Assembly: GCA_022868165.1 (NCBI GenBank)
Contig: JALHYA010000017.1
Location: forward strand, 11,634 to 75,633
Source: Patescibacteria group bacterium
Lineage (GTDB): Bacteria; Patescibacteriota; Microgenomatia; UBA8517
DNA: 64,000 bases
Reading direction: 5' to 3'
The position numbers and the translations under genes are program-made. This document shows positions 9,159-42,103 of the stretch, in pieces. Under the pieces are notes generated by a model. It had not been told where the DNA came from. It worked only from the letters and a program-made list of their open reading frames with translations, and searched no databases. How positions within the stretch are numbered: the stretch's first letter is position 1; each line of letters starts with the position of its first letter.

Positions 9159-9451
9159 TTCCTTTTGCTTTTAGCCTCTTTCTTGAGTTGGGTCAATTTC
9201 CAGATGAATAAAGCGGCTCTGTTTTTAACATTATTGGCGTCTTTGACAAAATTTTTGGCCGTCTCCAAAAGCCCCCGCGGGGTTTCTTTGGCCAATTTAA
9301 TATATAACGATTTATTCTTTAAATCCCCCAACTCTTCGGCCAGCTCGTAACCGTATTTCTGGAATTCATAGGAAATAAATTTGTCCTCGTCGTTGTCAAA
9401 CTTTTTTAGAACGTCGGCAACCGTAGAAAATCCCTTAAGATTATTTGGCAT
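9155..9451 (-). CDS. hypothetical protein (98 aa, Lys-rich C-terminus)
   Basis: ORF overlaps neighbours by 4 and 11 nt in operon fashion. No recognisable motif. Confidence 0.5.
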   Translation of the reverse strand: MPNNLKGFSTVADVLKKFDNDEDKFISYEFQKYGYELAEELGDLKNKSLYIKLAKETPRGLLETAKNFVKDANNVKNRAALFIWKLTQLKKEAKSKRK

Positions 9452-9914
9452 TTAATAACTCGTCCGCAACTTTTTTTATTACCGGCCTTAAATTTTCCTT
9501 CTCCACTTCGCTAAAATCCTGCAAAACATACTCCTCTCCCGGAATTCTGTTGTCCGGACCGCGGTCATCGACACCGATTCTAACCCTCCAAAAATCATCG
9601 GTGCCCAACAGCCGCTCTATAGAATTTACTCCGTTATGAAGTTTTGGACCCTTACCTTTTTGGATTTTATAGCTTCCCAAAGGAATATCCAAATCATCAT
9701 GAATAACCCATAAATCTGACGGATTTATACGATATTGTTCAACTAATTTCTTCACATAAGCCCCCGACTCGTTCATAAAAGTTATTGTCTTTCTGACTAT
9801 TACTCCGGGAGGAAGAACTCTGGTAAGAAGTTCATCTACTACTATGTAACCAACGTTATGCCGATTATTTTTATATTTTTCTTCGGGATTTCCCAAACCA
9901 ATGATAAGTTTCAT
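9441..9914 (-). CDS. pth: peptidyl-tRNA hydrolase
   Basis: MKLIIGLGNPEEKYKNNRHNVGY is the canonical Pth N-terminus. The internal Met at 9914 avoids overlap with pcm; the maximal ORF runs to 9992. Confidence 0.88.
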   Translation of the reverse strand: MKLIIGLGNPEEKYKNNRHNVGYIVVDELLTRVLPPGVIVRKTITFMNESGAYVKKLVEQYRINPSDLWVIHDDLDIPLGSYKIQKGKGPKLHNGVNSIERLLGTDDFWRVRIGVDDRGPDNRIPGEEYVLQDFSEVEKENLRPVIKKVADELLNAK

Positions 9915-9930
9915 AATCCCAATTGTAACA

Positions 9931-10572
9931 TTAGTTACTTTCGACGAAGGGCACAAAGGAAAAGATTCCGTACTGCTTTTTTGTGACTCCAAATTTGCTT
10001 TTTTTGTACTTCGTCATAGATTTACTCTCTCCCTCTCCAACCGGAGCGACCAAAATCCCTCCAATCTTAAGCTGGTCAAAAAGACCTTTTGGGACTTGCT
10101 CCATACCCGCGGTAACAAGAATCGCGTCAAACGGCGCATGCGCCTTCCACCCGAATTCTCCCTGTCCCACGCTTACCTTTACATTTTTTATCTGAAGTTC
10201 TTTTAGTGCCTTTTCGGCACTTCTCGCTAGCTCCGGAATTCTCTCAAGTGAATAAACTTCTTTTGCAAGGCGGGAAAGAACGGCTGCTTGATATCCGGAG
10301 CCGGTGCCTATTTCCAATACCTTTTCTTTTCCTTTAAGTCCAAGAAGGTTAGTCATAAAAGCCACGGTGTAAGGCTGGGAAATTGTTTGGCCGAAACCTA
10401 TCGGAAGAGCGGCATCGGAATATGCCAAATATCTTCTACCTTTGGGAACGAAGAGCTCCCGAGGTATTTTAAGCATTGCCTTAAACACCTTGGGAGCATT
10501 CAGTCCATAAGCGGACCTGATTTCTTCTATCATCCCCTTTCGAGGATTCATAAGATTAAGCCTTCTTTGCAA
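9931..10572 (-). CDS. pcm: protein-L-isoaspartate O-methyltransferase
   Basis: SAM motif VLEIGTGSGYQAAVL, GQTISQPY substrate motif, about 210 aa. Confidence 0.88.
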   Translation of the reverse strand: MQRRLNLMNPRKGMIEEIRSAYGLNAPKVFKAMLKIPRELFVPKGRRYLAYSDAALPIGFGQTISQPYTVAFMTNLLGLKGKEKVLEIGTGSGYQAAVLSRLAKEVYSLERIPELARSAEKALKELQIKNVKVSVGQGEFGWKAHAPFDAILVTAGMEQVPKGLFDQLKIGGILVAPVGEGESKSMTKYKKSKFGVTKKQYGIFSFVPFVESN

Positions 10573-34635: not shown

Positions 34636-35271
34636 TTATGGTCGTTCGAATGGGTTTTCCGGAACAGGCACTCCCTTGGAATTTAGGGCGTCCCGGGCCT
34701 CTTTGAAAGCGTTTTTGGCATAATCCTCGGACTGAACAATTCCGGGTTTTGCATCTTCCGGAGCAATTTTTAATATCTCTTCCAACACTTCTCTATGTTT
34801 GAGAGCCGCATTGGCCAACTTCTGCCAGAACGGCACCGTATCCAAACCCTTCTTTGTATTCTCTTTCCCTTGGTTCACGGCCATTTCCAGATATTTTTCT
34901 CCTTTGCTTAAAGACGGAAATGCAACCGATGATTTGTTTCTTTCAAATAAAATCTTGCTCGAAGCCAGCCTTTTGTCGGCGAAAAGAAGCATCAAATCCG
35001 CTTTCTTCCCACTATCGGTAGTTATAAAAAGCCAAAGCCTGTCTCTTGCTGCTTTGAGAAGCCAGAAAGGGCTATCCGGGAGTATTGAACCGGGATAAGC
35101 GAGAGAATAATCGATTATGACTGGTTTTTCGTTGGATGGAGTACTTGTCGGTTGTGGAGATGCGGGGAGAGCAAATGCGTACTTAATTGATGCGGTTTTA
35201 AGAACAGAAATAAAAAGAATTAAGGACGCCACCGAAAACGCACAACAAATATATGCAATCCGCCTAAACAT
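34636..35271 (-). CDS. secreted/anchored helical protein (DUF5667-like)
   Basis: 211 aa with an N-terminal TM or signal. PDSPFWLLKAARDRLWLFITTDSGKKADLMLLFADKRL resembles DUF5667 proteins common in CPR genomes (from memory). Confidence 0.6.
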   Translation of the reverse strand: MFRRIAYICCAFSVASLILFISVLKTASIKYAFALPASPQPTSTPSNEKPVIIDYSLAYPGSILPDSPFWLLKAARDRLWLFITTDSGKKADLMLLFADKRLASSKILFERNKSSVAFPSLSKGEKYLEMAVNQGKENTKKGLDTVPFWQKLANAALKHREVLEEILKIAPEDAKPGIVQSEDYAKNAFKEARDALNSKGVPVPENPFERP

Positions 35272-35337
35272 TAGGGTAAGGATAATAGTACTTCTCTTTC
35301 AAAAGCTAGTCAAGCTCGAAGGTTGAGTTTCCAGTCT

Positions 35338-35410
35338 CCATTCCCAAAGGACATGAAGGAAGATAAGCAAAGCTTGCGACTTAGTCTAAAGCAAAGCTTG
35401 CTGCTTCGCA
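35338..35410 (-). pseudogene. remnant of a CPBP protease 3' end with a ~24-nt tandem duplication
   Basis: 35338-35364 is 26/27 identical to 35627-35653, the 3' end of the intact CPBP gene. The minus-strand reading gives ...TKSQALLIFLHVLWEW versus TKNVFSSIFLHVLWEW, preceded by a stop and a duplicated unit sharing AAGCAAAGCTTGC. Confidence 0.55.
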
Positions 35411-35605
35411 GTAAGAAGTATTTTAAGCTTAATCTTGATTCCGAGGGAACCATTTTTAAAAATGTGTCGAACCAGCCCCAAGAAAGACAAACGATTCTGG
35501 TAAAAGTTCTCTGGCTGGTGAGACGCAAGCGAGGAGCGGAGTCTACAAAATAAGCTCAATTATACTCGACGAGAGTTTTTTAAAAATGCGTTTCCGAAGG
35601 AATCT

Positions 35606-36247
35606 TTATCTAAACAAAATAATGGGCCATTCCCAAAGAACATGAAGGAAGATTGAAGAGAAAACATTCTTTGTCCGGGCAAAAACAAAAGCCGAACCCA
35701 ATCCAAAAAGAGCAGTGATAAGTAGATTTACCATTGTTGCCGAAGCGCCCAACTGCAGAACAAAAATGTAAATCGGAACGTGTATTAGAACCCAAACAAG
35801 AGTTGTTATTACATTGGCGAGCCATTCATTTTTCAGAGCAAGCCACAACCTGTTAAACATATATCCCCTAAACGCAATCTCCTCACTCACGGCTGTTGCA
35901 AACGATATTCCCAAAGCCATAGGAAGCGTCTTGTCTCCAATATTTGCCGCAAAACTTAGGCCGTTGTGCTTAATAAAATTGATAATCAGCGCCTCCATCA
36001 CAAAAAACGAACCCAGGGCCAGAGAAAAATAAACGGAGGGGAAGAGGTTTTTGACTGTTATCCCCAAAGAATCCAAACCCAAGCCCTCTTTTTTGATAAT
36101 TACAAAAACCGGTATCAACCAAATAATGGGTTTTACAACCAACTCCTCTACTTCATCGGGTAGTTGTATTAAAAACCTGTAAAGTCCCCAGACTATCAAA
36201 AGATATGTTGCGTAAACCGTCGCTGTTTTTAAATAATTTTCTTTCAT
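35606..36247 (-). CDS. CPBP family intramembrane glutamic endopeptidase (CAAX protease/Abi family)
   Basis: 213 aa polytopic. Motif 1 SEEIAFRGY, later HVPIY and HVLWE His motifs. Confidence 0.85.
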   Translation of the reverse strand: MKENYLKTATVYATYLLIVWGLYRFLIQLPDEVEELVVKPIIWLIPVFVIIKKEGLGLDSLGITVKNLFPSVYFSLALGSFFVMEALIINFIKHNGLSFAANIGDKTLPMALGISFATAVSEEIAFRGYMFNRLWLALKNEWLANVITTLVWVLIHVPIYIFVLQLGASATMVNLLITALFGLGSAFVFARTKNVFSSIFLHVLWEWPIILFR

Positions 36248-36729
36248 TGCCCTTTCATTTTACATTCTTTATATGCTAGGCCGATGGCTTTGATAACCAT
36301 ATCTACTCTTTCTTTCGCCTCGGTGACACTCAGAGCATTCTTTTCGTTGGGAAACCAATGGAAAACCAAATTTCTGCAATTTTTCCAAGTGTCCCAAAGG
36401 GTATCCGCAAGCATGTTTGTCCCGGTAAAAGCGACCAGTTTGTCGTAGACGCTCTCGCTCCTGAAACTTTTTTCCAGAGAAGGATTTAAAGCTTTCCCGA
36501 TCCTAAAATGCTTTCCGTAGTAATCCTGGGGGGTGATAAACTCCAAATCCAAAAACAATTTTTTCAAAAATCCTTCGTAGGCTTTGGCTGCAGGAAAAAC
36601 CACAAAAGCATAGTCATGGAAATCCTCCTTGCCGTAATATGTTTCGGACAACAAAACCGCCTCATTTAGAAGCTTCTGAAGATCTTCTCCCAGGTAATTC
36701 CACCAGACCTCTTTCGACAGCTCACCCAT
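36244..36729 (-). CDS. hypothetical cytoplasmic helical protein with Rx4H (HEPN-like) motif
   Basis: 161 aa. NCRNLVFHW fits R-N-x3-H at about three-quarters of the length, as in HEPN domains. ATGA and TAATG overlaps with both neighbours. The family assignment rests on this one motif. Confidence 0.55.
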   Translation of the reverse strand: MGELSKEVWWNYLGEDLQKLLNEAVLLSETYYGKEDFHDYAFVVFPAAKAYEGFLKKLFLDLEFITPQDYYGKHFRIGKALNPSLEKSFRSESVYDKLVAFTGTNMLADTLWDTWKNCRNLVFHWFPNEKNALSVTEAKERVDMVIKAIGLAYKECKMKGQ

Positions 36730-37397
36730 TATTTTATTCCCAAAGTAACCGAAATGGTCAATTTTCCGCTGCTTTCGGCAAGTCCAACAAATCCGCTCGT
36801 TTTGTCCTTCTCAAAAGAAATAGTCTGCATTGCCTCTTGAGCAAGCTCGTTGTCTATCTTCCAACCACCAGCCGTAAGTTTATCTTTATAGAATAATTTT
36901 ACTTGGGTCACCGAGTCCGTCGTTTCCCAAACGACAGAAATTCCCTTGCTGTCTTCTCCGGTGGTTGTCCAAGAGGATGTTAGTTTGGCTCCGGGATAAA
37001 TCGGAAAATCGCTTGGGAAACCATCCGGCAGTTTTCCTTCTGCCGAGTAGGAAAACTGTCCTCCCTTACCGTCGAAGCTAATCTTTTTGCCGTCATTCTC
37101 CACCTTGACGTTTTCTCCTGCTGTCTTGGAAAGGAAAAGTGAGAGAAATTTTGAACTGATTTTCCCCCCTAAGCTTCTCCACAAAACCCGGGCCGCAAAT
37201 CCAACCAAAACCAAAACGGCAAGAACCGATAAGAGAATAATCAGTAGCTTGTTAGACTTTTTCTTGGGCTCTTCCTTTTCTTCTTTTTTATCTTCCAGTT
37301 TATCTTCCAAAAGAAACTCACCTCCTACCAAAAAACAATAGTCCAATAATATTATCATGCGGGGTTTTAAGTCAAACCCCGAAAGCCTGTATGACAT
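36729..37397 (-). CDS. membrane-anchored extracytoplasmic protein, function unknown
   Basis: 222 aa. Charged KE-rich N-terminus, one TM helix (LLIILLSVLAVLVLVGFAA), and a beta-rich C-terminal domain (FPIYPGAKL...VKLFYKDKLTAGGWKI). Confidence 0.6.
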   Translation of the reverse strand: MSYRLSGFDLKPRMIILLDYCFLVGGEFLLEDKLEDKKEEKEEPKKKSNKLLIILLSVLAVLVLVGFAARVLWRSLGGKISSKFLSLFLSKTAGENVKVENDGKKISFDGKGGQFSYSAEGKLPDGFPSDFPIYPGAKLTSSWTTTGEDSKGISVVWETTDSVTQVKLFYKDKLTAGGWKIDNELAQEAMQTISFEKDKTSGFVGLAESSGKLTISVTLGIK

Positions 37398-37508
37398 CCT
37401 CCCCGCTTTGAAAAGCGGGGTTTCCTCTAAAGGAGAATGACATATCAGCGTTCAATTCATCCCCTCGACTACGCTCGGGGTTTTCTTGAATGCTGATATA
37501 ATTCTCAT
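37398..37508 (+). promoter_or_regulatory. conserved multi-hairpin element upstream of PBP gene 1 (copy 1)
   Basis: Hairpin CCCCGCTT-TGAA-AAGCGGGG (37401-37420). Box GTTCAATTCATCC (37450-37462). Variable hairpin. Box TCTTGAAT (37484-37491). TGaTATAAT (37494-37502) lies 6 nt from the ATG. A long helix pairs GAGAAT..ATATCAGCGTTCAA with TTGAATGCTGATAT.ATTCTC. Confidence 0.6.
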
Positions 37509-39728
37509 ATGAAAGAAAAACTGCGGCTTGTTTTTGGAAAACTAAGAAAATTTTTTGCGAACGGAAAAAGGATTAAGGCTCTACTTTATTGGGGAGTTGT
37601 AGCCGTGGTCTTGACATGGCTTTTCTGGGGAATACCGCTCCCGACCGCCCTTTCTTCCAAACAAATCCCGGTTTCAACCAAACTTTATGACAGAAACGGA
37701 AAACTGATTTATGAAATATACACCGACAAAAGAAGTACGCCGATTAAACTTTCGGATCTCCCGGCTTATGTCAAAGAGGCCACTATTTCTATAGAAGACA
37801 AAGATTTTTACAAGCATTACGGATTTTCTTTTACCGGCATTGCCCGCGCTGCTTTTAATATAGTTTTTAAAAGAAATCTTCAGGGCGGGTCAACCCTAAC
37901 TCAACAATTGGTCAAAAATGCCCTTCTGTCCCCCGAACGCACGGTCAAGAGAAAAATTCGGGAATTCGTTTTAACAATGTTTGTCGAATCTCTTTACTCA
38001 AAAGACCAAATTCTGGAGATGTATCTAAACCAAATCCCCTACGGTTCAACCGCATACGGAATTGAAGCCGCGAGCGAACTTTATTTCGGAAAACAGGCAA
38101 AGGATTTGACGTTAGCCGAGTCGGCTCTTTTGGCGGGACTACTTTCATCTCCCACGGCATACTCGCCTTTTGGGGCCCACCCGGAGCTTGCCAAGGAAAG
38201 GCAAATAGACGTGCTCAGAAGAATGGTCCAAGACAAATATATCACTCAAGCCCAGGCGGATGAGGCAAAAAATCAGGAATTAAAGTATGCAGAAATTACC
38301 CCTCCTGCCGCTCCCCATTTTGCCCTCTGGATAAAAGAGCAGCTTGCAGAAAAGTACGGAACAAACATTGTCGAACAGGGGGGTTTGAGGGTTACCACTA
38401 CTCTTGATTTGGATTTGCAGGATTTTGCCCAAAAAGCCGTTGCGACCGAGGTTGCTAAACTCAAAGCCCAAAAGGTGGGAAATGGGGCCGTGATTGTTAC
38501 AAGGCCAAAAACCGGAGAGATTTTGGCGATTGTAGGGTCGAAGGATTATTTCGCAACGGATGAGGACGGTAAAGTGAATGTCATCCTATCCAAAAGACAG
38601 CCTGGCTCTTCCATAAAACCCTTAAATTATGCCTTGGCTATAAAAGATAAAAAAATAAATGCAGCCACTCCGCTCGCGGACGTTCCCAGCTGTTTCGCTG
38701 TTATTGGACAACCCATCTATTGCCCCACCAACTACGACGAAAAATTCCATGGAGCGATACAAGCCCGCTTCGCCCTTGGAAATTCTTACAATATACCGGC
38801 CGTTCGTGTTCTTGCCTTAAACGGTCTGGATAATTTTGTCAACTTTGCCAAACAGATGGGAATTACAACCTTTACCGACCCCGCCAATTATGGTCTTTCT
38901 TTAACCCTTGGAGGCGGTGAGGTCCGCCCGTACGATATGGCCGTGGCCTTTGGAGTCTTTGCCAACCAAGGAATCAAACAGCCTCTTATTTCAATACTCC
39001 AAGTAACCGACTGGAGGGGAAAAATTTATGAGGAAACCAAACCTAAAGATGTTGAACTTACGGGCGAGCGTGTTCTTAATCCCGAAGTAACCTTTATTGT
39101 TTCCCACATTCTTTTGGATAATAATGCGCGTTCACAGGCATTTGGCGAAACTTCATATCTCAATGTTGCCGGCCATCCTGAGGTTTCGGTCAAAACCGGA
39201 ACTACCAATGACAGAAAGGATAATTGGACGATAGGATATACCGCGGACGCTGCAGTTGTAGCTTGGGTTGGCAACAACGACAACTCTTCAATGTCTGGGG
39301 CGGTTTCGGGAATTTCGGGTGCTTCTCCTATTTGGAACAGGATAATGAAAGCGGTTTTGGATTCGGCGGAAAAAGGAGCTTACGACAAAGAGGAGGAAGG
39401 ACACGCCTGGCCACACCAACCGTCCGATGTTGTGGGCGCAACAATATGTTCTACGGATGGACTTTTGCCTCCCGGGCCCAAAGACAACCCCGGCTGTCCC
39501 GCACGTTTTGAGTACTTCCTAGAAGGAACCTTGCCGACCCAAACCAGCGGCCAAAAAGCCGATATTCCGATAAACAAGGATGACCATACCGTCTCCGCTC
39601 CCGATACCCCGCCGGACAAGATTGAAACCCAAAACCATCCGGTTTTATATGACCCTCTAAAAACTTTGGTGTGCCTTGACTGTCCGATACCTACAAAAGA
39701 GGTAACAATCAGTTATCCTCTGAGGTAG
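37509..39728 (+). CDS. class A penicillin-binding protein (GT51 transglycosylase + transpeptidase)
   Basis: 739 aa with an N-terminal TM helix. GT51 motifs EDKDFYKHYG and GGSTLTQQLVKN. Transpeptidase motifs SSIK, SYN and KTGTT. Confidence 0.92.
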   Translation: MKEKLRLVFGKLRKFFANGKRIKALLYWGVVAVVLTWLFWGIPLPTALSSKQIPVSTKLYDRNGKLIYEIYTDKRSTPIKLSDLPAYVKEATISIEDKDFYKHYGFSFTGIARAAFNIVFKRNLQGGSTLTQQLVKNALLSPERTVKRKIREFVLTMFVESLYSKDQILEMYLNQIPYGSTAYGIEAASELYFGKQAKDLTLAESALLAGLLSSPTAYSPFGAHPELAKERQIDVLRRMVQDKYITQAQADEAKNQELKYAEITPPAAPHFALWIKEQLAEKYGTNIVEQGGLRVTTTLDLDLQDFAQKAVATEVAKLKAQKVGNGAVIVTRPKTGEILAIVGSKDYFATDEDGKVNVILSKRQPGSSIKPLNYALAIKDKKINAATPLADVPSCFAVIGQPIYCPTNYDEKFHGAIQARFALGNSYNIPAVRVLALNGLDNFVNFAKQMGITTFTDPANYGLSLTLGGGEVRPYDMAVAFGVFANQGIKQPLISILQVTDWRGKIYEETKPKDVELTGERVLNPEVTFIVSHILLDNNARSQAFGETSYLNVAGHPEVSVKTGTTNDRKDNWTIGYTADAAVVAWVGNNDNSSMSGAVSGISGASPIWNRIMKAVLDSAEKGAYDKEEEGHAWPHQPSDVVGATICSTDGLLPPGPKDNPGCPARFEYFLEGTLPTQTSGQKADIPINKDDHTVSAPDTPPDKIETQNHPVLYDPLKTLVCLDCPIPTKEVTISYPLR

Positions 39729-39856: not shown

Positions 39857-40840
39857 GTGAAAGGCAGGTCTCAAATTTTTACTGCCCTAAGTTTCTTCGC
39901 CAGCGCCCTTAAGTTTGTCGGCCGGCCTTTCTACCTAATCTTCTCTTACGGATTTATTGCTCTGATTTTGGCAATATCCGCCGTCGGTATTTTGATAAAA
40001 GCCATTCTCTCCTTTCCAATAAGGCTTCTCCCGAAAATCCCTCTGAAAATCAAGTTTAAGTTCCGTCCCAAATTATTAACGACGTCTGTTTTGGGGCTGG
40101 CAATAATTCTTTCGATTTGGTTCTTTGTTTTCCGCAACCTTCCCTCTCCCAAAGAGCTTGTTAGCCGCAATCTGGAAGTTTCCACAAAGATTTATGACCG
40201 AAACGGGATCCTTTTGTATAAAATCTACAAAAATAAAAATCGCACGGTTGTCCCTTTATATAGGATTCCTCAAAACGTAAGGCTGGCCACTTTGGCTGCC
40301 GAGGACGCCGAGTTTTATAGCCATCCAGGAATATCAATTCGCGGGATAATCCGCTCTATTGTTACAAACTTGAAGCAAGGAGAACTAACCGGAGGCTCAA
40401 CAATTACCCAGCAGCTTGTTAAAAATGCGCTTCTTTCGCCGGAAAAGACTTTTCGACGGAAACTTCGCGAAGTAATTCTTGCATTCGAAGTCGAACTTGT
40501 ATACTCAAAAGACCAAATTTTGGAAATGTATCTGAATGAAGTTTCCTATGGCGGAACCGCGTACGGAATTCAAGAAGCCGCCCAGCTTTATTTCGATAAA
40601 GATGTAGAAAATCTGGATTTGGCCGAAGCCGGGCTTCTGGCCGGACTTCCAATAAGTCCGACAAAATATTCTCCGTTCGGATCAGAACCCGACCTGGCAC
40701 TCGTTCGCCAGAAAGAAGTGCTGGAACTTATGCGCATCAACAAATACATTACCCAAAGGGAAATGGAGGAAGCCGAAAACGAACCCGTCAGCTTTGCCCC
40801 AAACAGAACGGATATCAAAGCTCCCCATTTTGTAATGTAA
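39857..40840 (+). CDS. class A PBP paralogue, N-terminal part (TM anchor + GT51 transglycosylase), ends at in-frame TAA
   Basis: EDAEFYSHPG and GGSTITQQLVKN motifs. Terminates at ...KAPHFVM-TAA where the paralogue reads APHFALW. Confidence 0.8.
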   Translation: MKGRSQIFTALSFFASALKFVGRPFYLIFSYGFIALILAISAVGILIKAILSFPIRLLPKIPLKIKFKFRPKLLTTSVLGLAIILSIWFFVFRNLPSPKELVSRNLEVSTKIYDRNGILLYKIYKNKNRTVVPLYRIPQNVRLATLAAEDAEFYSHPGISIRGIIRSIVTNLKQGELTGGSTITQQLVKNALLSPEKTFRRKLREVILAFEVELVYSKDQILEMYLNEVSYGGTAYGIQEAAQLYFDKDVENLDLAEAGLLAGLPISPTKYSPFGSEPDLALVRQKEVLELMRINKYITQREMEEAENEPVSFAPNRTDIKAPHFVM

Positions 40841-42103
40841 GTTAAAGAGCAATTGGTTGATAAATATGGTGAAGAAATGGTTCAGCAGGGAGGACTCAAT
40901 GTCATAACTACTCTTGATTATTCTATACAAAGATTGGCGGAAGATGCGGTAAAAAACGAAGTCGCCAGCCTTCAAGCGCTACATGTAGGAAACGGGGCGG
41001 CGTTGGTTTTAAACCCGAGAACAGGAGAGGTTCTTGCAATGGTAGGCTCCAAAAATTATTTTGATACCGAAGGAGGAGGAAACGTAAACGTAACCCTGCG
41101 CCCTCGCCAGCCCGGCTCTTCAATAAAAATCGTCAACTATGCCTATGCTCTTTCCACTAGTTACACCCCGTCATCGATTCTTTCGGATACTCCCGTCACT
41201 TTTTCAACCGGAGGACTTGCCCCTTACACCCCCAAAAACTATGACGGCAAATACCGGGGGAATCTTACCCTTAGAAGTGCTTTTGCGGAATCCAGAAACG
41301 TCCCTGCCGTAAAGGTTCTCGCATCTTACGGTGTAAGCCACATGATTGACCTTGGAACCAAAATGGGCATTACAACTTGGACCGAACCATCTAACTACGG
41401 ACTATCTCTCACTCTCGGTGGTGGTGAAGTGAAACTTTTGGATTTGGCACGGGTATTCGGGACAATTGCCGATTACGGCAAAAAACCTCCGATTTTTTCA
41501 ATTATTAAGGTAACCGACTATAAAGGAAAGGTTTTGGAAGAAAATAAGTGTTTAACCGAAGAGCCGTGCGAAGGTCCCGAAGTCGTTGACCCAAGGGTTG
41601 CGTTTCTCTTAACAGACATCCTCAAAGATAACAGTGCCAGAACCCCCGCTTTTGGTTCAAATTCCGCATTGGCTATTGCCGGCCATCCCGAAGTTGCAGT
41701 CAAGACCGGAACCAGCAATGATTTAAAGGACAATCTGACCCTCGGTTTTACCCAAAAATACCTTGTTGCAACTTGGGTAGGAAATAACGACTCAAGTCCC
41801 ATGTCAAAAATTGCCTCGGGCATAACAGGCGCGGCACCAATCTGGCATACAATTATGGCAAGCCTTCTTTCCAATGAAAAACCCGACCCCTGGCTGGTCC
41901 CGGACGGGGTTGCCAAGCTTTCGATTTGCACACTGACCGGAACTTTGGCCTGCGAAGAATGCAATTCTTATTCCGAATGGTTTCTGAAGGAAAAAGCCCC
42001 GACGAGGGCGTGTACAAAAGAAGCCATAACAAAGATTAAGGACGAGAAAAAGACCCAAGGCAAAATTCTAGAACCCGCAGCGAAAATTGAGGTTGTTAAC
42101 TAA
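40841..42103 (+). CDS. class A PBP paralogue, C-terminal part (linker + transpeptidase), same frame as 39857-40840
   Basis: Continues VKEQLVDKYGEEMVQQGGL in frame directly after the TAA. Has SSIK, SRN and KTGTS motifs. The first possible start is TTG at 40853. Confidence 0.75.
   Translation, partial: VKEQLVDKYGEEMVQQGGLNVITTLDYSIQRLAEDAVKNEVASLQALHVGNGAALVLNPRTGEVLAMVGSKNYFDTEGGGNVNVTLRPRQPGSSIKIVNYAYALSTSYTPSSILSDTPVTFSTGGLAPYTPKNYDGKYRGNLTLRSAFAESRNVPAVKVLASYGVSHMIDLGTKMGITTWTEPSNYGLSLTLGGGEVKLLDLARVFGTIADYGKKPPIFSIIKVTDYKGKVLEENKCLTEEPCEGPEVVDPRVAFLLTDILKDNSARTPAFGSNSALAIAGHPEVAVKTGTSNDLKDNLTLGFTQKYLVATWVGNNDSSPMSKIASGITGAAPIWHTIMASLLSNEKPDPWLVPDGVAKLSICTLTGTLACEECNSYSEWFLKEKAPTRACTKEAITKIKDEKKTQGKILEPAAKIEVVN

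Follow-up and report, generated by a model that had tools for sequence, protein, structure and literature searches.

We analysed a 64,000-nucleotide stretch of contig JALHYA010000017.1 (hereafter the window) from a Patescibacteria group bacterium of the Microgenomatia lineage, and in it a cluster of three overlapping genes on the minus strand, here called A, B and C. Gene B (36244–36729) encodes a protein of 161 amino acids (aa) that consists of a single RnlA/LsoA-class HEPN domain and is predicted to be an endoribonuclease, and gene C (35606–36247) encodes a 213-aa CPBP/Rce1-like intramembrane glutamic protease. In the reading that we adopt, and on which we are evenly poised between belief and doubt, B is a HEPN endoribonuclease of minimal size that remains catalytically competent, has become part of the vertically inherited core genome of the Microgenomates and is tethered to the membrane through its CPBP neighbor. 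Its scope would be the Woesebacteria and their relatives, where the gene sits inside a conserved block of envelope and nucleotide-metabolism genes. B looks like a built-in cellular RNase and not like a mobile anti-phage weapon.

Gene B encodes a minimal HEPN protein

The first-pass annotation of this locus had guessed that the 161-aa protein is HEPN-like from one short motif. An Rx4H match alone is weak evidence (by a rough estimate, the chance of finding one in any 161-aa protein is ~0.1–0.2), so the HEPN call has to stand on homology and fold. Both bear the guess out. The AlphaFold2 model, the structure prediction that the annotation had proposed as a check, is all-helical and has the all-alpha helical-bundle fold of HEPN domains. 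A profile of 120 family members matched the E. coli toxin LsoA (PDB 5hy3) over its whole HEPN domain, residues 208–339 (E = 1.7e-3), and a broader profile of 62 sequences did so at E = 2.5e-4; a single-sequence phmmer search of B against the PDB gave no match, LsoA being reached by the family profile alone. The LsoA alignment pairs RNLVFH with RHGLFH and AAKAYEGF with SALRAIEGF. Two Pfam models matched the N-terminal half of B only, both below their gathering thresholds: HEPN_RnaseLS (PF18869; E = 2.5e-5, 25.1 bits versus 29) and RnlA-toxin_DBD (PF19034; E = 1.4e-4, 22.7 bits versus 27). Many homologues bear a precomputed PF18869 label, graded "weak" wherever a strength is given, and one (P0086) is named RnlA family toxin at NCBI.

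The annotated motif, NCRNLVFHW, is present in B, as are SEEIAFRGY and HVLWE in C. The Rx4H motif proper, R119-N-L-V-F-H124, lies at 36358–36375 on the minus strand (R119 at 36375–36373, H124 at 36360–36358), and an upstream K49-A-Y-E52 lies at 36574–36585 on the same strand. In RnlA, residues R255, E258, R318 and H323 are each needed for RNase activity and toxicity, and they come together at the canonical HEPN dimer interface (PMC8266594). Their equivalents in B are K49, E52, R119 and H124. We then looked at how these residues are conserved. B has 1641 database homologues, of which the best 120 span 158–181 aa and are, beyond the four closest relatives, ~58–69% identical to it; the few of these that carry an organism name are Patescibacteria, Microgenomates or Woesebacteria. 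K49, E52, K56, R76, R119, N120 and H124 are invariant in these best 120. In an alignment of 62 sequences reaching down to 18% identity to B, the sole invariant columns are E52, R119 and H124, and K49 and N120 are at least 90% conserved. The R and H whose conservation the annotation had put forward as decisive are thus invariant in both sets, and RNxxxH is present in all 128 full-length HEPN open reading frames (ORFs) at the loci described below, CPBP-less ones included.

From the profile homology to LsoA and the matching catalytic residues we therefore classify B as a single-domain HEPN protein of the RnlA/LsoA class, with a predicted RNase activity. It is homologous to the E. coli toxins (rnlAB, lsoAB; PDB 5hy3, 6y2p, 7aex) over their whole HEPN (Dmd-binding) domain and arranges its catalytic residues alike, with [R/K]xxE in an early helix and Rx4H after it. 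Unlike them, it lacks the N-terminal TBP-like NTD and NRD domains, leaving the HEPN domain alone, and it has K where RnlA has R255. The partners RnlB, LsoB and Dmd have no counterpart beside B: no RnlB-like gene was found at the locus, and a CPBP membrane protease lies downstream instead. The known toxins are also patchily distributed and borne on plasmids or islands, whereas B is a conserved, vertically inherited core gene. An exhaustive profile search of 1.84 billion representative proteins (E ≤ 1e-3) yielded only 225 clusters at 50% identity.

A conserved block and natural HEPN-CPBP fusions

To describe the genomic setting we compared 49 species-representative genomes and 80 more distant metagenome loci (35–51% identical to the query homologue P0138). 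Gene order in the 49 genomes is a divergent class A penicillin-binding protein (PBP), then A where present, B, C, a DUF5667 protein, NrdR and ribonucleotide reductase (RNR), and the block of PBP, HEPN protein, DUF5667, NrdR and RNR recurs across both samples. The divergent PBP lies upstream in 41 of 41 species-level and 43 of 51 distant loci that could be evaluated, and by tblastn a DUF5667 gene comes after B or C in 46 of the 49 species-level loci. The CPBP gene is next to B in 45 of the 47 species-level loci that could be evaluated and in 21 of 55 distant ones; it is one gene away in none and 8, respectively, and it is missing, with DUF5667 directly after B, in 2 and 26. Median identities to the window proteins across the 49 species are 73% for NrdR, 68% for PBP, 58% for both B and C, 47% for DUF5667 and 38% for A. 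B is present in complete chromosomes of 0.8–1.1 Mb (L006, L012, L034). The window locus has PBP, DUF5667, NrdR and RNR as its neighbors, with no island features, and there are no mobile or defence genes in the 129 loci.

Where B and C are separate genes, the estimated spacer between them is short (47 species: median 24 nucleotides (nt), at most 100 nt in 44, overlapping in only 2). The ATGA overlap seen in the window is particular to the present lineage. The coupling of the two domains is strongly supported by natural fusions. Two of the 225 clusters, P0124 and P0125 (383 aa), carry HEPN and CPBP domains in one protein, and a further search turned up at least 24 separate clusters of such fusions (369–393 aa), 39–64% identical to the query fusion P0125, in NCBI, JGI, ENA and Logan assemblies; the named sources include Shapirobacteria and a "Microgenomates group" genome. 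In the HEPN half of the fusions E, R, N and H are invariant and K nearly so, and in the CPBP half EE, R, H and H are invariant. The predicted model of the fusion (pLDDT 83, pTM 0.69) has a helix at 137–158 followed by another at 160–195. The fused genes adjoin the divergent class A PBP, and their downstream genes differ (leucyl-tRNA synthetase (LeuRS), ClpB).

ORFs of 43–50 aa directly flank fused genes in three loci (L053:6859–6996, L050:8175–8306, L056:7181–7333). In the two scanned, L053 and L050, they had no Pfam match; if they are conserved peptides, they would be possible partners or inhibitors.

The most distant relatives in the HEPN clade carry 2–4 N-terminal transmembrane (TM) helices ahead of the HEPN domain, which means that membrane association recurs in the clade, in three forms: as an operon partner, as a fusion and as the protein's own TM helices. 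These TM-fused members (such as P0232, P0256, P0224 and P0229; profile E 1e-11 to 1e-16) have RNxxxH and KAYEG in common with B. Their TM helices take the place of the CPBP partner. Two of the loci could be read (L066:8001–8939 and L064:8001–9098), and both, unlike the window locus, lie in mobile or defence-like islands. In one, the neighbors are an integrase, a helix-turn-helix protein and an S8 peptidase together with an AAA ATPase; the other has a DDE transposase and the toxin-antitoxin genes for YafQ, HicB and BrnT. The TM-HEPN proteins may be mobile toxin relatives of the domesticated Microgenomates gene.

We found no paper tying HEPN to CPBP, only one irrelevant text with both terms, in a literature search whose coverage was incomplete and which does not prove absence; a search on HEPN together with group names of the candidate phyla radiation (CPR) gave no such link among the matches listed.

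Membrane tethering or a soluble enzyme

How might such a protein be held at the membrane? In the window B would be transcribed from a promoter upstream of A and translated in a manner coupled to C. It would probably dock onto C at its cytoplasmic N-terminal face. The fusions are the model for this: in them the final HEPN helix passes almost directly into the first TM helix. RNA cleavage would thereby be confined to the membrane. By analogy with RnlA, gating would probably act on the canonical HEPN dimerization by which the composite R/H active site is formed.

Several points weigh against this proposal. The activity of B, its RNA targets and its contact with C when the two are separate proteins are all things that we infer, as are the gating at the membrane and any tie to peptidoglycan synthesis, and the pTM of 0.69 for the fusion model falls short of proving that the interface is fixed. 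Of the 55 distant loci, the 26 without an adjacent CPBP keep the motif intact, from which it follows that B has a core role independent of C and that tethering is at most a lineage-specific layer. Gene order is conserved within one class and may be historical rather than functional. K stands where RnlA has its substrate-binding R255, and this potentially toxic RNase has no evident inhibitor.

One alternative is that B is a soluble housekeeping RNase of RNA processing or decay, comparable to Las1, in which case the order of PBP, CPBP, DUF5667 and NrdR would simply be inherited and C would be functionally unrelated. The CPBP-less lineages with their retained motif fit this, as does the absence of a TM segment from B, and unrelated genes have been inserted into the block in some lineages (the CMP-kinase-like gene described below, LeuRS, ClpB). 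It has difficulty, however, with the persistence of at least 24 independent fusion clusters that have diverged to 39–64% identity with both active sites kept, with B–C spacers that stay within 100 nt in 44 of 47 species, and with the N-terminal TM helices of the most distant relatives. The lack of any link to C is conceivable for the ancestral role of B and is disfavored by the long-lived fusions; overall, we regard the soluble enzyme as unlikely, though a serious contender.

Gene C and the nature of the partnership

The first-pass annotation had called the last gene a CPBP protease, and this was correct: C matches PF02517 (Rce1-like/CPBP) at E = 1.1e-16, with 61.3 bits against a gathering threshold of 22.4, and has the multi-pass CPBP fold. 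The catalytic motifs of this family are EExxxR, (F)xxxH and HxxxN/D. C has E122-E123-x3-R127 at 35867–35884, H156 at 35780–35782 and H202 at 35642–35644, all on the minus strand, and these five residues are conserved in 70–79 of 79 orthologues. It therefore shares EExxxR, the motif-2 His and the motif-3 His with the rest of the CPBP family (Rce1, PDB 4cad; S. aureus SpdC/LyrA, 6u0o; the myxosortases; bacteriocin-immunity Abi proteins). It departs from them in motif 3, where E206, four positions past the His, stands in place of N/D; this residue varies elsewhere.

NCBIfam subfamily models, the myxosortase equivalog included, all scored far below their cut-offs on C. We also read the C-termini of A and of the DUF5667 protein by eye and found neither a C-terminal TM helix nor a sorting tail. 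With such low scores and no C-terminal sorting signal in the neighboring proteins, a myxosortase-type sorting protease was rejected.

The CPBP half resembles SpdC of the SagB-SpdC peptidoglycan-release complex, in a library that had only two CPBP fold references; the ranking of SpdC over Rce1 reflects the shared CPBP fold only. SpdC is a CPBP scaffold that partners the peptidoglycan hydrolase SagB, and by analogy B might be a non-catalytic HEPN module that binds RNA, nucleotide or protein and serves as a cytoplasmic regulator or scaffold for the CPBP protein and the cell-wall machinery. The class A PBP as constant divergent neighbor and the K in place of R255 would suit such a role, and some HEPN domains, such as that of MtlR, are indeed non-catalytic (PMC3710099). 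Down to 18% identity, however, E, R and H are invariant and N and K nearly so, which is exactly what catalysis predicts; C retains protease motifs that one would not expect a pure scaffold to need; and the likeness to SpdC, as said, is one of fold. A scaffolding B is in our view rather improbable, and a catalytic B accounts better for the invariant residues. The constant pairing with a class A PBP and the SpdC resemblance together hint at a link to the envelope, although the order may be merely inherited.

Downstream of C the annotation had noted the decayed 3′ end of a second CPBP gene and had taken it to indicate turnover at the locus. The relic is real. It comprises the last ~18 codons (35332–35385, minus strand), reads TKSQALLIFLHVLWEWRL against TKNVFSSIFLHVLWEWPI at the protein level, and at the DNA level is a 27-nt direct repeat with 26 of 27 positions identical (35338–35364 versus 35627–35653). 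It is also tiny, and the rest of the 334-nt spacer that separates C from the DUF5667 gene (35272–35605) has no CPBP-like sequence. What turnover there is amounts to strain-level indels in this one intergenic spacer, which is strongly divergent among strains with near-identical flanks and lacks ~190 nt in strain L062. Except for the 27-nt match to C's own 3′ end, the rest of the window contains no second copy of the spacer. It also holds a tandem 18-nt repeat (35365–35382 and 35389–35406) and a 19-nt inverted repeat (35451–35469 and 35570–35588). A small hidden gene or antitoxin in the spacer was considered and rejected, no ORF being conserved between close strains, and an Rfam scan of the whole window found two tRNAs only, neither near the locus.

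Gene A and the defence hypothesis

The three ORFs lie at 36729–37397 (A), 36244–36729 (B) and 35606–36247 (C). The A/B junction reads ...AAA TAATGG..., a 1-nt overlap (TAATG), and the B/C junction reads CAATGAAAG, a 4-nt overlap (ATGA). The operon proposed from these overlaps stands, its coordinates and junction sequences agreeing with ours.

The most likely start of gene A is a TTG codon at 37310, which makes its product a 193-aa single-pass membrane protein (36729–37310, minus strand) rather than the 222-aa product of the full ORF. We place the start there for three reasons: a ribosome-binding site, AGGAGGTG, lies 7 nt upstream of this TTG; a promoter-like site falls inside the longer ORF; and in the close strains L061–L063, whose B is 96% identical to that of the window, the gene has been called as 193 aa. 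The promoter-like site, TTGACT-18 nt-TATTAT (37346–37375, minus strand), is the best in the region, matching 10 of 12 consensus positions, and lies 36 nt upstream of the TTG within the N-terminal extension of the 222-aa ORF; as a consensus match alone it is functionally putative. In the protein, a charged tail at the N-terminus is followed by one TM helix and then by a conserved domain of ~100 aa at the C-terminus. Its sole label is a precomputed PF27226 (AF_1845) in close strains, and a profile of nine orthologues found no significant PDB or Pfam match in local libraries.

The intergenic region from which A and the PBP gene diverge contains two GC-rich hairpins, 37401–37420 and 37463–37480. 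They are terminator-like on the plus strand, on which no gene ends there, and the first occurs once in the window and is not a member of a repeat family. A regulatory role for the hairpins at the divergent promoters is conceivable.

By tblastn, 8 of the 49 species-level loci have gene A; among the more distant loci, 13 of 68 do. A CPBP gene accompanies it in 10 of 10 loci, compared with 22 of 47 loci without A (p = 0.0016, uncorrected for phylogeny). As a lineage-specific accessory gene, A arose among lineages that contain CPBP, and its product could be a substrate or modulator of C. Two species-level genomes, L040 and L037, keep B and have lost the adjacent CPBP gene, L040 retaining A as well, which shows that C can be lost even inside the close Woesebacteria group.

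This distribution bears on the proposal of the first-pass annotation that the three genes form a triad of membrane sensor, protease and effector with a stress- or phage-triggered logic. In its full form, A would sense an extracytoplasmic signal, C would transduce it and B would be freed as a toxic effector. HEPN RNases of the class of B are classic anti-phage toxins (PMC3710099; PMC8266594), its distant TM-fused relatives P0232 and P0256 sit in islands rich in integrase, transposase and toxin-antitoxin genes, A co-occurs with CPBP as described, and the overlaps would couple translation of all three genes in the window. The triad is not conserved, however: A is missing from ~80–85% of related loci, and the synteny on which the annotation had staked it weakens with distance even for B and C, from 45 of 47 close loci to 21 of 55 distant ones. 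Nor does the setting suit defence. B belongs to a fixed core block beside PBP, DUF5667, NrdR and RNR, free of mobile or defence neighbors in the 129 loci, and is conserved like its housekeeping neighbors; a PADLOC-DB v2 scan of A, B and C (E ≤ 1) gave no match, and a scan of IMG/VR with the family profile found no viral relative of B. A stable fusion of effector and protease also speaks against release, unless C cuts its own fusion. We consider a defence triad distinctly improbable. A type II toxin-antitoxin pair of the rnlAB kind is disfavored as well, there being no RnlB-like gene, a fixed core block and, as proposed partner, a dispensable CPBP: 26 of 55 distant loci keep a motif-intact "toxin" with no adjacent CPBP gene.

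Comparison with core HEPN enzymes and neighboring genes

In eukaryotes, HEPN RNases as core enzymes are known from Las1 and from the KEN domains of Ire1 and RNase L, Ire1 being membrane-anchored and activated by dimerization (PMC3710099). Compared with these, which it parallels in logic only, B has no kinase domain, is related at the superfamily level only, and has an intramembrane protease as its partner. One could imagine, by analogy, an Ire1-like device in which the CPBP protein, for which A or the DUF5667 protein would be the ligand or substrate, reads the state of the envelope or peptidoglycan and controls HEPN dimerization, so that membrane-proximal transcripts would be cleaved and growth adjusted; we regard this as a long shot.

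In one sub-lineage a gene for a conserved P-loop kinase of ~210 aa lies between the HEPN and CPBP genes, overlapping the CPBP start (L058:6848–7486, with equivalents in L104, L108, L115, L116, L118, L130 and L141). The intervening gene is CMP-kinase-like in 7 of the 8 distant loci in which CPBP is one gene away from B, resembling the archaeal-type (d)CMP kinase model TIGR02173 with 73 bits, below the cut-off of 102. A pairing of HEPN and polynucleotide kinase like that of Las1-Grc3 was rejected on account of this resemblance. The CPBP proteins of the kinase-bearing group may explain the minority with substituted motif residues.

The constant downstream neighbor, a DUF5667 membrane or secreted protein, is encoded at 34636–35271 on the minus strand (Pfam E = 1.2e-13), with a putative promoter-like site from a promoter scan at 35313–35285, also on the minus strand; we found no paper mentioning DUF5667. 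The constant divergent neighbor, a class A PBP with transglycosylase and transpeptidase domains (Pfam), lies at 37509–39728 on the plus strand. It is followed by a second class A PBP gene (39857–42103, plus strand) that an in-frame TAA at 40838–40840 splits into a transglycosylase-only part (39857–40840) and a transpeptidase-only part (40853–42103) in the same frame; in the close strain L061 the second PBP is intact at 747 aa. The split may reflect a nonsense mutation or pseudogene confined to this strain, or a sequencing error, or the halves may be expressed separately. In Woesebacteria GW2011_GWF1_31_35 (L033/L034:8635–12045), ~1 kb interrupts the RNR match between query residues 315 and 311 (9432 to 10513), which suggests an intein or intron-like insertion.

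Implications

Automated annotation already labels some members of these families as RnlA-family toxin or CPBP protease. What is new here is a minimal RnlA-class HEPN protein that is domesticated and coupled to a CPBP protein. To our knowledge, bacterial HEPN RNases are known almost entirely as toxins of mobile toxin-antitoxin, abortive infection, CRISPR and restriction-modification systems; here an RnlA/LsoA-class HEPN has been pared down to its catalytic domain and retained as a single conserved gene in genomes of only ~1 Mb throughout an entire class of the ultra-small CPR bacteria. As far as we know, the RNA metabolism and envelope biology of CPR organisms are largely uncharted, and the substrates and partners of bacterial CPBP proteases are mostly uncharacterized. 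The HEPN-CPBP fusion offers these proteases a concrete candidate for a cytoplasmic partner, and B, if active, would be a domesticated toxin RNase with a cellular job at the membrane.

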